A DNA stretch of 64,000 nucleotides from Patescibacteria group bacterium (GTDB lineage: Bacteria; Patescibacteriota; Patescibacteriia; 2-12-FULL-60-25). The notes beneath the pieces are model-generated. The model did no database searches, was not told the DNA's origin, and saw only the letters and a program-made list of their open reading frames with translations. Within the stretch, counting starts at the first letter, position 1. The number at the start of each line of letters is the position of its first letter. The DNA is taken from the NCBI GenBank assembly GCA_038061235.1, contig JBBTZS010000002.1, forward strand, positions 4,672 to 68,671. The letters are read 5' to 3'. The position numbers and the translations under genes are program-made. Below are positions 22,609 through 63,585 of the stretch, one piece after another.

Positions 22609-23711
22609 GAGTTCTGATGGACGGCCGTCCGATGCTGCGCCCATGGATGGGCGGCGTCCCAAGACTCGCGTCGAGTTTAGCGACATCGATCAAGGCGGCA
22701 CTCGGTGACGACCAACTGATCATCGCGACGACGGGCCTGCGCCGCGCGACAGATTCCGCCGTTTTAAGTTTCAAGTTTCAAGTTTCAAGACCCATCCCCA
22801 ACAAACTCATCGCCTTTCTCACCTTCACCGGCCTTTCTTCATTCGATCGTTTGTTTCGAGATCAAAATGCGGACGTGCTCCTCCTGCCGAATCTCGAATT
22901 CGTCGGTCGCCCGCGCATGCCGTACGCGCTTCTCGTCCACGATCTTTCGTTTCTGGTCGAACCGCGCTGGTTTGACCGTAAATCCCGTATCTGGCACGCG
23001 CTCGTGAAACCACGATCGTTGATCAGGAATGCGACGCATCTCTTCACAGTTTCCGAAACAACGAAACGCGATCTCATACGTCTACTCGATATTGATCCGT
23101 CGCGGATTACCGTGATTCCGATGGGACTCGATCCGCTTCCCGCGCTTCCCGACAACGATCGCCTGTCGCGGGCGCATGACCATGCGCCCCTACCGCAAAA
23201 CGGGCGGTTCATCTTGTGTCTCGGCGGATCTAATACGAGAAAAAACGCGTCATGCGTTTTGGCCGCGCATGCCATGCTCGTAAAAAATCCGAAATTTCAA
23301 GATGTGGATTTGGTTATTTGCGGTGGCCTCTCCCCTCAATCCCCTCCTCCCGGAAGAGGGGCAAGGGGTGGTGCGACGCACCTCGACCGTCCTTCCGACA
23401 CCGAACTTTTTTCCCTCATGCGTGACGCCTCAATATTTTGTTATCCGTCTTGGTACGAAGGCTTTGGGATACCACTCCATGAAGCCGCGAGATTCGGAAC
23501 GCCGTGTATCGCTTCGACCTCGAGCTCACTTCCGGAAACTGCACCCGAAGGAACGACGTTTGCCTCGCCCGCTAAACCCCATCATTGGGTCGAAGCGATA
23601 TGTCAGGTCTTGGACAATCCGGAAAAACATCGAACCAAAACCGTACTCGGAGACTGGAGTGAGGCGGGGCGCATAATCACGAATAAGCTGCGTGAAATAG
23701 CAAAGGCCTGA
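22605..23711 (+). CDS. Glycosyltransferase (GT-B, group 1)
   Basis: 368-aa ORF with GT1-type C-terminal domain (FCYPSWYEGFGIPLHEAARFGTPCIAS). Contains two repeat-derived in-frame segments. Confidence 0.8.
   Translation: MRVLMDGRPMLRPWMGGVPRLASSLATSIKAALGDDQLIIATTGLRRATDSAVLSFKFQVSRPIPNKLIAFLTFTGLSSFDRLFRDQNADVLLLPNLEFVGRPRMPYALLVHDLSFLVEPRWFDRKSRIWHALVKPRSLIRNATHLFTVSETTKRDLIRLLDIDPSRITVIPMGLDPLPALPDNDRLSRAHDHAPLPQNGRFILCLGGSNTRKNASCVLAAHAMLVKNPKFQDVDLVICGGLSPQSPPPGRGARGGATHLDRPSDTELFSLMRDASIFCYPSWYEGFGIPLHEAARFGTPCIASTSSSLPETAPEGTTFASPAKPHHWVEAICQVLDNPEKHRTKTVLGDWSEAGRIITNKLREIAKA
22761..22789. repeat. Tandem heptanucleotide array GTTTCAA x4
   Basis: Inside the CDS, translated as VLSFKFQVSR. 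Confidence 0.85.
23327..23385. repeat. G-run/C-run hairpin element inside the glycosyltransferase CDS
   Basis: CTCCCCTCAATCCCCTCCTCCCGGAAGAGGGGCAAGGGGTGG, translated as GLSPQSPPPGRGARGG. Related in style to 27686-27760. Confidence 0.65.
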
Positions 23712-23722
23712 TTTTTGGCTAA

Positions 23723-23750
23723 GTAGGGGCACGGCATGCCGTACCCCTAC
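23723..23750. repeat. REP-like palindrome, copy 2 (GTAGGGGCACGGCATGCCGTACCCCTAC), followed by a T-run
   Basis: 12 nt after the glycosyltransferase stop and followed by TTTTTT, so it probably also acts as a terminator. Confidence 0.8.
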
Positions 23751-36332: not shown

Positions 36333-38930
36333 ATGCAAACTCCCGTATCCGATACCCCTGTGCCGTTTTGGTCGCAACCGACCGAACGCGTCCTTTTCGA
36401 ATTGAAAAGCTCGTCGCAAGGACTCACGACTCCGGAAGCGGCCAAACGTCTTTCGCGGTACGGAAAAAATGAAATCGACGGACGTCGTCGGCTTGGAGCG
36501 CTTGTCATCCTTCTTTCGCAACTCAAAAGCCCCCTCATCATCATCCTGCTGGTCGGATGCGCGATCTCCCTTGTCCTGCGGGAGTGGGTGAACGCCGTCG
36601 TGATTCTTGCCACGGTCATCGTAAACACGGGTCTTGGTTTTTGGCAGGAAAATAAGGCTGAAACGGTTCTTGAAGAATTGAAGACCTACTTAAAAAGTCA
36701 CGTACGCGTTTTTCGCGACGGAGCGGGGCACAAGCGGGACGCGACGGAGCTCGTGCCGGGCGACGTGATCCATCTTTCGCAAGGCGATCGCGTACCGGCG
36801 GACGGGCGTATTCTGGAAGCGAATAGCTTAGATGTCGACGAATCCGTCCTTACAGGAGAATCGCTGCCTGTGCACAAAGATGGAAAAGCGGTGAAAGAAG
36901 ACGCGCCGCTCGGCGAGCGCGGCTCCATGGTCTGGAGCGGAACGCTGGCGGTGCAAGGGTTCGCGCAAATCGTCGTCACCGCCACGGGAAAAAACACCGA
37001 GTTCGGCCGCATCGCCGAAATGGTTTCCTCGCGCGAACGTGAGACAACGCCGCTCCAAAAAGCCGTGGCCTCGTTCGCCCGCGTCATCGCCGTCGTCGTG
37101 ATCGCCTTGTCGGGCCTCCTGTTTGGGATCGGCTTCGCGCTTGGCCAGGACCCCGCCGAGATGTTTTTTATTTCGATCGCGATCGCGGTATCGGCCGTAC
37201 CGGAAGGACTCCCCGTCGCGCTCACCGTCATTCTCGCGATCGGCGTGGAGCGCCTCGCGAGACAAAAAGGCATCGTCCGCAAATTGCTCGCGGCCGAAAC
37301 GTTGGGATCGACCAGCCTCATCCTGACGGATAAAACAGGCACCCTCACGCAGGCCGACATGCGTCTCGTTGACGTCGTTTCGTATGGGGCGGACACGGAA
37401 GAACGGGTGGCGGCCATGCTGCGTGAAGCCGTGTTGAACACGGATATCATCATAGAAAATCCGGAGGCGGATCCCGATGACTGGCAGATCATCGGACGCT
37501 CCATGGAATCGTCACTCGTGCGTGACGCGGGAAGGCGTGGCGTTCTCTTGCCAAGACTTCACAAAACGTATCGCATCGTTGATCGCGTGCCATTTGATTC
37601 AAAGAAGAAATATGGCGCCGTGCTCGCGGTCGACGGCGGCGAACAACGACTGATTCTCATGGGCGCACCGGAAATCCTGCTCGCGCTTACCGACGTCTCC
37701 GAGGAAGAACGCGAACGGATCGGCCGCGAAATGGAAGATCGGGCGTACGGCGGAGAACGTCTGCTCGGACTCGCGTCCGTCGCTTACCCCAAGGAAAAAA
37801 TCGATACGCGTAGTCGTTACATAAATCTCGAATTTAAAGGCTTCCTCGCCTTCCGTGATCCGGTGCGACCAAACGTGAAGGAAGCGATCAAGCGCATCAG
37901 CCAAGCGGGCGTAAAAACCGTGATCGTCACCGGCGATCACAAGGGAACAGCCGAACACGTGGCGCGCGAACTCGGCATTCTGGAAGGGCGCGGTCTCGTC
38001 GTGACCGGCTCGGAGCTTGCACAGATGGACGTCGCACGATTGCGTGAACGCCTGCCCGACATACGCATTTACGCGCGCGTCACGCCGGAGCAAAAGCTCA
38101 TGCTCACGCGGTTGTATCGCGAGCAGGGCGAGATCGTGGCCGTGACGGGCGACGGCGTAAACGACGCGCCGGCGCTTCAAGCCGCGGACGTGGGCGTCGC
38201 GGTCGGATCGGGAACCGAAGTCGCCAAAGGCGCGGCCGATCTCGTTATTCTCGACGATAACTTCAACACGATCGTCATCGCAATCGAGGAAGGTCGTCGC
38301 ATTCTCGACAATATCCGAAAAGTGTTCGTCTATCTGCTCTCAAACGCGGCGAACGAACTCGCGCTCATCGGCGGCGCGTTGCTGTTTCAAGTCCCGATCC
38401 CCATCACGGCACTGCAAATCCTCTATGTGAACTTCTTTTCCGACAGTCTTCCCGCTATCGCGCTCGCGTTTGAAGAAATCGGTGACTCGAAAAATCGTTC
38501 ACGCACCGTCGGCACCGCCACGATTCTCAATTCCCAAGTGCGCTTCTTCATTTTCGTGCTCGGTCTTGGAACCAGCTTCATGCTATTCGCGCTTTACTAT
38601 ATTCTTCTTGGCCAAGGACATGATCCGGCGCTTGTACGAACGCTTATCTTCGCGTCATTCGCAAGCTATACGCTCTTCGTTGCGTTTTCCCTGCGAAGCT
38701 TGAAGCACAGCATTCTGACATATAACCCGTTCGGCAACCGCTACTTAACGGCGGGTGTCGGCATCGGTCTGGTTCTGACCGCCGGAGCGATTTATCTCCC
38801 CTTTCTCCAAAAAATCCTAAGCACGGTTCCACTTCCGCTCCCTTGGCTCGGCGGCGTGCTCGTCGTCGGTCTCGTAAACGTCATCTTCGTCGAGGGCGCA
38901 AAGTGGATCTATCGAAAGCGAGAGGATTAA
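36333..38930 (+). CDS. Cation-transporting P-type ATPase (P2, Ca2+/Mg2+-type)
   Basis: ORF 36252-38930; ATG at 36333. Canonical TGES, DKTGTLT, TGDHKGTA and GDGVNDAPAL motifs. Confidence 0.9.
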   Translation: MQTPVSDTPVPFWSQPTERVLFELKSSSQGLTTPEAAKRLSRYGKNEIDGRRRLGALVILLSQLKSPLIIILLVGCAISLVLREWVNAVVILATVIVNTGLGFWQENKAETVLEELKTYLKSHVRVFRDGAGHKRDATELVPGDVIHLSQGDRVPADGRILEANSLDVDESVLTGESLPVHKDGKAVKEDAPLGERGSMVWSGTLAVQGFAQIVVTATGKNTEFGRIAEMVSSRERETTPLQKAVASFARVIAVVVIALSGLLFGIGFALGQDPAEMFFISIAIAVSAVPEGLPVALTVILAIGVERLARQKGIVRKLLAAETLGSTSLILTDKTGTLTQADMRLVDVVSYGADTEERVAAMLREAVLNTDIIIENPEADPDDWQIIGRSMESSLVRDAGRRGVLLPRLHKTYRIVDRVPFDSKKKYGAVLAVDGGEQRLILMGAPEILLALTDVSEEERERIGREMEDRAYGGERLLGLASVAYPKEKIDTRSRYINLEFKGFLAFRDPVRPNVKEAIKRISQAGVKTVIVTGDHKGTAEHVARELGILEGRGLVVTGSELAQMDVARLRERLPDIRIYARVTPEQKLMLTRLYREQGEIVAVTGDGVNDAPALQAADVGVAVGSGTEVAKGAADLVILDDNFNTIVIAIEEGRRILDNIRKVFVYLLSNAANELALIGGALLFQVPIPITALQILYVNFFSDSLPAIALAFEEIGDSKNRSRTVGTATILNSQVRFFIFVLGLGTSFMLFALYYILLGQGHDPALVRTLIFASFASYTLFVAFSLRSLKHSILTYNPFGNRYLTAGVGIGLVLTAGAIYLPFLQKILSTVPLPLPWLGGVLVVGLVNVIFVEGAKWIYRKRED

Positions 38931-39670
38931 GACCGTTTGGATTGCGCCTTCCTCCACTCCTCAATCTTTTTATGATTCCCCGAGAGAAGTACGTCGGGCA
39001 CATTCCAAACTTTTAACTTTTGCCTTTTGCCTTTTGACTTACCAAGAACATAATTTTCCGGTCTCGTATACTGCGGATATTCGAGTACGCCTGCGTCCGT
39101 ATGCGACTCGGCCGCAAGCGACTCCGCTTTGCCAAGGACGCCGGGAACCAGGCGCGCGACGGCATCCGTCATGACGAGTGCGGGGAGTTCGCCGCCCGTC
39201 AGAACGTACGGCCCGATGGACAGCTCCTCGTCGGCGAGATGTTTGGCGATGCGCTCGTCCATGCCCTCGTATCGCCCGCACAAAAAGACGAGGCGGTCGT
39301 ATTTCGAAAGTCGCTTTGCCTCCTGCTGTGTGAACGGTTTCCCTTTTGCGGATGTAACGATGACGCGCGCCTTTTTGGCAGCGGCCGTTTTCTTTCCGTC
39401 TTTCGTCCGGAGTTTGAGCGAGACGAGTGCTTCGTGAAACGGCGCGACTTTCATCACCATCCCGGGACCACCGCCAAACGGCTTGTCGTCCACAGTTTTA
39501 TGCGCGTCATGCGTCCAGCGGCGCAAGTCATGCACCTGGATTTGTAGGGGTACGGCGCGCCGTGCTCCTACCGAACGTTGCGCACGCCCCAAAATCGAAC
39601 CGCGTAAATACGGCTCCACCATTTCAGGAAAAATAGTGACGATATCGACGCGTAATGGTTTGCGTTTCAT
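38927..39670 (-). CDS. trmD: tRNA (guanine37-N1)-methyltransferase TrmD
   Basis: 247-aa ORF: IVTIFPEM, VDDKPFGGGPGMVM, CGRYEG.DER, LSIGPYVLTGGE motifs. Carries an in-frame palindrome insertion. Confidence 0.92.
   Translation of the reverse strand: MKRKPLRVDIVTIFPEMVEPYLRGSILGRAQRSVGARRAVPLQIQVHDLRRWTHDAHKTVDDKPFGGGPGMVMKVAPFHEALVSLKLRTKDGKKTAAAKKARVIVTSAKGKPFTQQEAKRLSKYDRLVFLCGRYEGMDERIAKHLADEELSIGPYVLTGGELPALVMTDAVARLVPGVLGKAESLAAESHTDAGVLEYPQYTRPENYVLGKSKGKRQKLKVWNVPDVLLSGNHKKIEEWRKAQSKRS
39544..39571. repeat. REP-like palindrome, copy 5, inside trmD
   Basis: GTAGGGGTACGGCGCGCCGTGCTCCTAC, translated on the minus strand as SVGARRAVPLQ. Confidence 0.8.
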
Positions 39671-39739: not shown

Positions 39740-40153
39740 CTAGATTCCCAGATCCGACAAATCGTCGTCCGAAACCAATCCTGAATCGCCATGGACCTTT
39801 ACGGTCGGGCGCGCTTCTCTTTCGGAAGATCCGCCCATGGTGGACTTCTTTTCCTGGTGCTGGCGGCGAAGCTCTTCCGGCTCGTAAATCACCATGCTGA
39901 CGCGGGCGTCTTCCTTGGCACCGACGATTTTGAGGAGAATACGGAGCGCGCGGGCGGTTTGGCCCTGACGACCGATGATGTACCCCATGTCTTCCGGGTT
40001 CACGTAGAGCGTGATCTTTACGCCGCGATCATCGATTTCGCGGGTGGTCTTCACGTCTTCCGGATGGTTGACGAGGGACTTCACGACGTACTCGAGAAAC
40101 GGCTGGTCTGTGTGCATGTCTGCCATATCGGCACGAACGGTGCCCGCCTGCAT
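39740..40153 (-). CDS. KH-domain RNA-binding protein (YlqC/UPF0109-like) with an acidic tail
   Basis: KH GXXG loop MGYIIGRQGQTARALRILL. Start probably at 40126 or 40117. Confidence 0.75.
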   Translation of the reverse strand: MQAGTVRADMADMHTDQPFLEYVVKSLVNHPEDVKTTREIDDRGVKITLYVNPEDMGYIIGRQGQTARALRILLKIVGAKEDARVSMVIYEPEELRRQHQEKKSTMGGSSEREARPTVKVHGDSGLVSDDDLSDLGI

Positions 40154-63054: not shown

Positions 63055-63585
63055 ATGAAACGCATCCAAATCCGCGCCGTCGGGCGACTCCCCGAGGCCT
63101 GGCAACGCGAAGCCCAAACCGCCCTTCTCGCACGGCTTCAACCGTATGCCAAAACCGAAATCCTCGAGGTTTCCGAGGGGCACGGCGGCTCCCGCAAGCC
63201 GGATGCGACACGCGCTAAACGGGCCGAGGCCGAAGCGCTTCGTAGGGGCACGGCGCGCCGTGCCCCTACGAACGCATTCGTGATTGCGCTTGATGAACAC
63301 GGGAAGGAATATGACTCCCTCGCTTTTGCGAAGCAGATCGAGACGTGGTCCGAGGGTGGCCGACCGCTTGTCTTTCTCATCGGCGGTTCGTGGGGCTTGG
63401 ATGAAGCGCTCGCGAAGGACGCGCACGCAAAACTCTCGCTTGGAAAAATGACATGGCCGCACGCGATCGCGCGCCTGCTGCTTCTCGAACAACTCTTCCG
63501 CGCCGAGACGATTGCTCGTGGCAAGGAGTATCATAAGCGACTCTGTGATATACTCTTTCCATCATTCATTCTTGTCTCAAAATAA
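63055..63585 (+). CDS. rlmH: 23S rRNA (pseudouridine1915-N3)-methyltransferase RlmH
   Basis: 176-aa ORF: MKRIQIRAVGRL.., FLIGGSWGL, TWPHAIARLLLLEQLFRA..YHK are SPOUT/RlmH-typical. Carries an in-frame palindrome insertion. Confidence 0.85.
   Translation: MKRIQIRAVGRLPEAWQREAQTALLARLQPYAKTEILEVSEGHGGSRKPDATRAKRAEAEALRRGTARRAPTNAFVIALDEHGKEYDSLAFAKQIETWSEGGRPLVFLIGGSWGLDEALAKDAHAKLSLGKMTWPHAIARLLLLEQLFRAETIARGKEYHKRLCDILFPSFILVSK
63242..63269. repeat. REP-like palindrome, copy 6 (perfect: GTAGGGGCACGGCGCGCCGTGCCCCTAC), inside rlmH
   Basis: Perfect 28-bp palindrome, translated as RRGTARRAPT. Confidence 0.9.

Follow-up and report, generated by a model that had tools for sequence, protein, structure and literature searches.

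A double-foot REP element as a probable in-frame passenger in a TrmD loop of a groundwater patescibacterium

Introduction

Repetitive extragenic palindromic sequences (REPs) of the "double-foot" kind, which carry a 5' GT[AG]G and a 3' C[TC]AC on one hairpin, go with TnpA-REP transposases of subclass 2.4; these enzymes have the motifs NH[IFV]H / WQ / YIxNNP and in-frame REPs between HuH and Y (Quentin et al. 2018, PMC6006769). Intragenic GTAG/CGTC REPs are read in frame in known genes, with an enrichment in DNA repair and RNA/tRNA enzymes, and in one case different REPs lie at about the same recB site in two Xanthomonas species (Di Nocera et al. 2013, PMC3733652). Here we analyze a palindrome inside trmD, the gene for tRNA (m1G37) methyltransferase, in a 64,000-nt stretch of DNA (the window; JBBTZS010000002.1, positions 4,672-68,671, forward strand). 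The genome of the window, G000, comes from an uncultured, Uhrbacteria-like groundwater bacterium (Patescibacteria) and comprises 0.93 Mb on 13 contigs (C1, C3 and so on) with 56% G+C. Coordinates are window positions unless a contig is named.

Together, our results suggest that the trmD block is very probably a double-foot GTAG...CTAC REP with a matching REP-associated tyrosine transposase (RAYT) in the genome, carried as an in-frame selfish passenger in a permissive loop of TrmD.

Results

A palindrome is translated within trmD

The trmD gene (38927-39670, minus strand) is intact and encodes 247 aa, as judged from the open reading frame (ORF) list, Pfam (PF01746, E 2.9e-52, 177.7 bits) and matches to 27 solved TrmD sequences in the PDB (best E 1.5e-54). 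It is the single match in G000, with no second copy in the genome. The motif for G36/G37 recognition, VDDKPFGGGPGM, is conserved, and so is the remainder of the gene.

On the plus strand, positions 39544-39571 read GTAGGGGTACGGCGCGCCGTGCTCCTAC, a 28-bp palindrome built of GTAG, a 9-bp stem, a 2-nt centre, the returning stem and CTAC. Twelve of the 14 arm positions are Watson-Crick pairs and the other two are G·T on this strand, in agreement with the near-perfect 28-bp palindrome announced in the original prediction, which also quoted the local protein sequence correctly. The palindrome pattern has three matching sites in the window, while none is expected by chance. In mRNA sense the repeat is GTAGGAGCACGGCGCGCCGTACCCCTAC, read as GTA GGA GCA CGG CGC GCC GTA CCC CTA C, and codons 34-42 (39545-39571, minus strand) thereby encode VGARRAVPL, which the secondary structure assignment (DSSP) of our model places in the coil between alpha1 and beta2. 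The trmD copy differs from its family consensus at two third positions, both synonymous G-to-A changes (GGG to GGA and GTG to GTA).

The same trmD DNA was recovered on nine contigs from independent samples, one of them identical across trmD (L176) and another with four differences, all outside the repeat (L177). The block is therefore real, and an assembly artefact is ruled out as its source.

Three printed alignments to solved TrmDs have a 6-residue gap at the insert point. In the genus comparison, the five other genomes read GRGQ-K(A/T)K(R/A)-LDLRAH, while the window reads GRAQ-RSVGARRAVP-LQIQVH. Since all five congeners lack the insertion and the copy has just two substitutions, both synonymous, the insertion appears to be recent. 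The gain had been put at 9-10 aa; the net figure is only 6 residues (18 nt), because four native loop codons (K-x-K-x) are missing.

The palindrome belongs to a dispersed REP family

G000 holds about 30 copies of GTAGGGGCACGGC(AT/GC)GCCGTGCCCCTAC on 12 of its 13 contigs, with none expected by chance. The suggestion that a repeated palindrome was inserted in an essential gene is upheld. Variant copies remain symmetric through changes on both arms, such as GCAAGG/CCTTGC and GACACGG/CCGTGTC, and the GTAG...CTAC feet are present in the trmD copy as well as in the family consensus. A CRISPR repeat, an attC site and a dif site were considered and ruled out, as the copies are dispersed, perfectly symmetric, GTAG-footed, not in arrays and associated with a RAYT. 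A literature search returned no match to the exact repeat sequence or its peptides.

Sixteen of the ~30 copies are intragenic and in frame, in hosts confirmed by Pfam or homology: TrmD, TsaD, RlmH, RecG, a RadA-like ATPase, PGM/PMM, PheT (three copies), a UvrD/AddA-like helicase-nuclease, ValRS, a RumA-like methyltransferase, KsgA, a HemK-like methyltransferase and two transposase genes. The reading frames are strongly biased: 13 of the 14 host-gene copies read VGAR(H/R)AVPL and one reads RGTARRAPT (binomial p 0.0018). Both RAYT-internal REPs use the RGTARRAPT-type second frame, and TAG occurs in the third.

A cognate RAYT is present in the genome

A six-frame Pfam scan of G000 with PF01797 was blank, and the absence of a RAYT that this implied was overturned by tblastn with a RAYT from the same genus. 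The query was a 189-aa RAYT of genome G001, which itself has a REP inside (L156), and it matched pieces at C9:21127-21627, C10:3-131 and C12:26553-26861. Contig C9 ends in ~55 nt that recur where C10 begins, and the joined 197-aa ORF reads ...MPNHIHGIIRITDAAYGRGTACRAPTVRGAPTVRRAPTTERF...WQRNYYERVIR...YIRDNPAKW, with the motifs NHIH / WQ / YIRDNP and a PF01797 score of 23.9 bits (cut-off 23). The C12 piece is a second RAYT copy, with the motif NHFH. REPs at C9:21398 and C12:26827 lie inside the RAYT ORFs and read RGTA(C/R)RAPT, and a further REP lies at C9:20951, 143 nt upstream.

Both RAYT genes are interrupted at contig ends, at the very positions of their internal REPs (C9:21019-21629, C10:1-137 and C12:26472-26868), and evidently the assembly broke at these repeats. 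With the RAYT split across contig ends, the Pfam scan of the genome therefore missed it. REP-split RAYT genes at contig ends can evade profile scans, which is a lesson for annotation. In the C9 RAYT, the REP is followed by two half-REPs (GRGTACRAPT VRGAPT VRRAPT).

We surveyed the taxonomic family (127 genomes, 33 genera) for the 28-mer, allowing up to two mismatches. It was found in 17 of the 127 genomes and 9 of the 33 genera, and G000 has the most copies. The cognate RAYT accompanies it in 14 of these 17 genomes, compared with 31 of the 110 genomes without the 28-mer (Fisher p 3e-5). Exact copies of the 28-mer were found in more than 119 stretches from many phyla, with hosts among Chloroflexota, Acidobacteriota, Planctomycetota, cyanobacteria, Desulfobacterota, Omnitrophota, Uhrbacteria, Peribacteria, Chlorobiaceae and others. 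At 7 of 119 loci (L031-L149) it lies inside or beside a RAYT 43-53% identical to that of G000. A REP that travels inside its own transposase gene can therefore be identical across phyla. By its sequence features, the element is assigned to the double-foot GTAG REPs, with a RAYT of subclass 2.4 type.

The same TrmD loop has been filled repeatedly

The search for TrmD homologues gave roughly 7,500. Of the 120 clusters nearest to our TrmD, five have 5 or 6 additional residues at this point, while the loop is of standard length in the other 115. The original prediction had E. coli TrmD without an equivalent block; the block is indeed absent from these 115 clusters and from the solved TrmDs of the three printed alignments. 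The five filled loops read RSVGARRAVPL (own allele), RPIAARRLAPL (P0114, genome G012), RVPAHGHAPL (P0042, genome G020), RRRTQSHAPL (P0087) and IGRGGVTPPL (P0115). No recurrent REP-like inserts were seen in other TrmD loops of the 120-cluster set.

One possible explanation is that the loop is an old, lineage-specific feature of TrmD, inherited from a common ancestor and lost in most relatives, with its palindromic look being secondary. GRAQR precedes the insert in three of the five filled alleles and xVH follows it in all five, as an ancestral loop would have it. However, a TrmD tree built without the insert columns demands at least four changes, forced by its starred branches, and only P0087 and P0114 are sisters. 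Moreover, the inserts are different palindromes, each from a family with further genome copies: our own 28-mer, a perfect 27-nt double-foot REP of different sequence in P0115 (GTAGGGGCGGGGTTACCCCGCCCCTAC), and in G020 the sequence GGCGCATGGTCATGCGCC, which belongs to a second palindrome family with nine copies in G000. The inserts of G012 and P0087 are decayed. Loss would further need exact restoration of K-x-K-x many times, and an ancestral loop is hardly credible. As read from these sequences, the TrmD loop is taken to have been filled in at least four independent events by different REP variants.

KsgA presents a similar case of a recurrently filled loop, in which the repeat-derived peptides of the sister species G000 and G004 differ, SGRGVLQYAPTFDRER versus SRTVGARHAVPL (G004 ksgA, L164, compared with G000 C5:7334-8191). 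In the interdomain linker of the G012 TrmD (L011), ahead of EYPQYTRP, there is a further insert of 5 residues, PCRAM, which may be another REP remnant.

The filled loop is a coil outside the reported binding residues

An AlphaFold2 model of TrmD was built from 117 homologues (mean pLDDT, the model's per-residue confidence, 88.2). It superposes on solved TrmDs, among them the tRNA complex 4yvi, with template modeling (TM) scores of 0.72-0.78. DSSP assigns a strand to residues 6-12, helices to 15-24 and 26-32 (together alpha1, 15-32), coil to 33-41 and strand beta2 to 42-48, and the insert is therefore the alpha1-beta2 loop. Mean pLDDT is 70 at residues 31-40 and 91-97 in the adjoining blocks.

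The tRNA and S-adenosylmethionine (AdoMet) contacts listed for H. influenzae TrmD are Asp50, Arg52, Tyr54, Gly59, 88SPQG91, Arg154, Asp169, Arg183 and 198-201 (PMC5372744). The alpha1-beta2 loop, 27-30 in H. influenzae numbering by alignment, holds none of them. From the parallel-sheet topology of SPOUT domains, we would place this loop at the sheet edge opposite the knot loops. The original prediction asked whether the site is solvent-exposed and away from the knot. By residue list and model, the insert is a lower-confidence coil outside the listed contacts, but it does not directly follow beta1 as had been thought, because the model sets it between helix alpha1 and strand beta2. The insert probably survives because this loop is a permissive coil outside the reported AdoMet- and tRNA-binding residues.

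The mRNA hairpin in trmD is weak

The hairpin could be kept for its own sake, to control trmD expression by ribosome pausing, mRNA stabilization or attenuation in a transcript shared by khpA and trmD. CCC-C is prone to +1 frameshifting when tRNA-Pro is without m1G37, the product of TrmD, and the repeat puts CCC-C (Pro-Leu) at trmD codon 41. Effects of REPs elsewhere on the stability of mRNA, on termination and on translation are also reported (PMC6006769 and PMC3733652, background sections). However, frameshifting here would lower TrmD further at times of shortage, and such a design would not be homeostatic.

Folding argues in the same direction. Both departures from the consensus destroy pairs in mRNA sense, where they become A·C mismatches, and the hairpin is therefore reduced to a stem of 5+1+4 bp at -10.8 kcal/mol (z -1.8 versus shuffles); the mRNA stem of about 12 bp originally proposed was overstated. 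The antisense strand is predicted to fold at -19.4 kcal/mol and the perfect consensus at -24.4 kcal/mol (z -4.9). In contexts of 68 and 128 nt, the minimum-energy fold omits the trmD hairpin and is no better than shuffles, so that folding against shuffles gives no sign of a selected mRNA structure at the trmD repeat. Of the 16 intragenic copies, that of trmD is among the three weakest mRNA-sense hairpins. The nearest relatives lack the repeat, and the other filled alleles differ or are fully decayed, L011 and L162 retaining no palindrome. A regulatory role is thus very improbable. The copy's place among the weakest and its absence from close relatives suggest that the hairpin has no function of its own in trmD, and that the element is a selfish passenger.

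The idea that selection acts against mRNA hairpins in coding copies was not supported, as 9-10 of the 16 copies in genes remain perfect, with folding energies of -22 to -24 kcal/mol. The CCC CTA of trmD codons 41-42 lies at 39547-39550; CCC-C (Pro-Leu) is found likewise in most other host genes, and the +1 frame runs for ~30 codons to a stop.

Native codons are lost where REPs have entered coding genes

The REP in trmD sits within a 45-nt patch (39533-39577, minus strand) of CGTTCG, the REP and AAATCCAGGTG, which stands in place of a 27-nt orthologue stretch. When codons are aligned to P0002/L178, the nearest empty allele, nucleotide identity is ~0.8 gene-wide and 0.3-0.5 across the patch. A recombination patch from a G012-like donor was considered, as the 21-24 nt left of the insert are identical to L011. 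Many empty alleles match 18-19 of 21 positions there, and the stretch is therefore simply conserved.

The compared intragenic sites behave alike. Net gains are +18 nt in trmD, +15 in P0115 trmD, +12 in rlmH, where the REP is perfect, and +12 and +15 in ksgA, with 10-16 nt of target missing every time. In the trmD events, the foot Leu codon replaces the conserved Leu that opens beta2, and the second-family trmD inserts have CCC CTC / CCT CTT at the position of the foot.

Other copies and neighboring features in the window

Further copies were located in the window. A perfect REP at 63242-63269 lies in rlmH (plus strand; SPOUT methyltransferase, PF02590, E 1.5e-42), is read RRGTARRAPT and adds a net 4 aa relative to the other genomes of the genus. 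A decayed REP at 27882-27909 is read GGARRAVSV in tsaD (minus strand). The copy at 23723-23750 has one mismatch and an A/T run beside it, and is apparently intergenic. A diverged REP with three mismatches lies at 26848-26875, and a diverged REP with three mismatches is also found at 157-184.

In about half of the ~30 REPs, at least four variable flanking bases are mutually complementary (tccg|cgga, ttcg|cgaa, tacg|cgta, ggtc|gacc, aaaa|tttt), and such elements look as if centred in short pre-existing palindromes or extending outward. A REP cluster at C8:36909-37106, whose members each have an extra half-REP (...CCCCTAC ATGCCGTGCCCCTAC), lies on both sides of an N assembly gap.

The second palindrome family, GGCGCATG-NN-CATGCGCC, is represented in G000 by its nine copies with at most one mismatch, at window 23171-23188 and at C3:22661, C3:77818, C1:100767, C3:5167, C3:121024, C5:110, C8:19382 and C8:58958. 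It is read (V)GAHGHAP inside PheT and KsgA, ValRS has a similar EAHDHAP, and the same family fills the G020 TrmD loop.

Directly upstream of trmD lies a gene for a KH-domain (KhpA-like) protein (39740-40153, minus strand), taken from the ORF list and matched by PF13083 for the same gene in independent contigs; the two genes are probably co-transcribed. Relative to solved TrmDs, the protein has two more Lys-rich insertions, of 10 and 12 residues at ~86-97 and 208-220 (window ~39380-39415 and ~39011-39049). These are common to most family relatives, which suggests that they are older and not REP-derived.

Discussion

We favor a model in which a REP copy entered the 4-residue alpha1-beta2 loop of TrmD after the species split from its sequenced congeners. 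The copy is read through in frame as VGARRAVPL and is now decaying through synonymous changes. As E. coli TnpA-REP and the IS200/IS605 family would suggest by analogy, the RAYT may mobilize the REP via single-stranded DNA. Refilling of one loop would reflect how few positions of a small essential enzyme can accommodate about nine more residues, and a target preference may add to this.

Several observations weigh against this model. The trmD insertion is not clean: a 28-nt element yields just +18 nt at the cost of four native codons, and the flanks of the REP, over 6 nt 5' and 11 nt 3' of it, are unlike every relative, which simple peel-and-paste insertion does not predict. The REP 3' foot (CCC CTN) stands in the same register in three filled trmD alleles (own, P0115/L161 and G012/L011), and a pure selection filter may not fully explain it. 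Finally, the complete RAYT ORF rests on joining two contig ends via the 55-nt overlap, and action of the RAYT on the REP, transposition included, is presumed by analogy.

These points lead to a rival in which recurrence reflects mechanism and not only selection: the RAYT/REP system, or microhomology-driven repair with the REP as filler, would prefer this spot in trmD and replace a short target stretch. At least four independent fillings by different REP variants all have the 3' foot in one register, and target is lost at every compared intragenic site even where the REP is still perfect. The lost stretches are Lys-rich and A-rich (KAKx, KKKD, LKGYGS), and the same ksgA loop was filled by different repeats in G000 and G004. 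However, a coding gene can keep a 28-nt insert only if its length is compensated, and selection by itself therefore skews the set of observed cases. With four residues in the loop, "same site" is a coarse term; a foot Leu codon in place of the conserved Leu would be favored by selection; the sample is small (~6 sites); and no conserved target motif is evident in the flanks of the ~30 copies. Target loss, register and frame bias may all follow from selection alone, acting through frame, the length of the loop and the conserved Leu. We regard targeted replacement at trmD as unlikely. Slightly more doubtful still is its general form, in which REP/RAYT systems replace short Lys-rich surface loops in a defined register, by cut-and-replace or by microhomology templating, and so repeatedly rewrite given loops in core enzymes of RNA modification (TrmD, KsgA, TsaD and RlmH) with VGAR(H/R)AVPL as the preferred peptide. 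If true, loop replacement would amount to natural loop-swapping mutagenesis in reduced genomes. Target-codon loss, the common register and the 13:1 bias in frame may hold clues to REP integration and are so far observations only.

With the in-frame passenger remaining our preferred reading, the locus has two implications. TrmD serves as a target for antibiotics and as a model of knotted proteins, and the data mark its alpha1-beta2 loop as an insertion site validated by nature: different 9-residue peptides have filled it at least four times. The sequences also suggest that REP/RAYT elements, which are known for the most part from large genomes of free-living hosts, are active in a sub-megabase patescibacterial genome, with half of the copies translated in essential translation and repair enzymes.

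In-frame intragenic REPs are already known, while a Patescibacteria host and TrmD as a target were not found reported. Our literature search found no paper linking REPs or RAYTs to Patescibacteria, and TrmD was not found among the hosts in the parts of the supplementary text of PMC3733652 that were available to us. That paper was also not found to describe a 13:1 frame bias or a consistent loss of target codons.

Most Rickettsia palindromic elements (RPEs) are ~100-150 bp long and encode 30-50 residues, and we know of no transposase for them. The trmD element, in contrast, has 28 bp and encodes nine residues, and a cognate RAYT is present, which leaves a functional resemblance only. This resemblance is that of selfish palindromic DNA in frame in essential genes, tolerated as extra surface peptide (RPEs are cited in PMC3733652).

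The closest match is the subclass 2.4 system (PMC6006769). With 28 nt, the element falls within the size of about 20-65 nt of such dispersed hairpin-forming REPs. Both have the two feet on one hairpin, with a RAYT that here carries NHIH / WQ / YIRDNP; in both, REPs lie in or beside the RAYT gene, as they also do in G001 and at the seven loci of other phyla, and the spread across phyla is patchy. The hosts listed in PMC6006769 are Cyanobacteria, Bacteroidetes and various other phyla, whereas here the host is a reduced patescibacterium in which about half of the copies lie inside core genes. The intragenic REPs of PMC3733652 are likewise short and read through in frame in known genes, RNA/tRNA and repair enzymes included, but here a single loop has been filled at least four times. 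With the E. coli REPs and bacterial interspersed mosaic elements (BIMEs) and their TnpA-REP (PMC3333891, PMC3479197), the element shares the GTAG guide tetranucleotide at the hairpin foot and a Y1 HuH transposase as the presumed mobilizer. The E. coli REPs are imperfect, one-footed and essentially extragenic, whereas the family described here is a perfect two-footed palindrome that is often intragenic.

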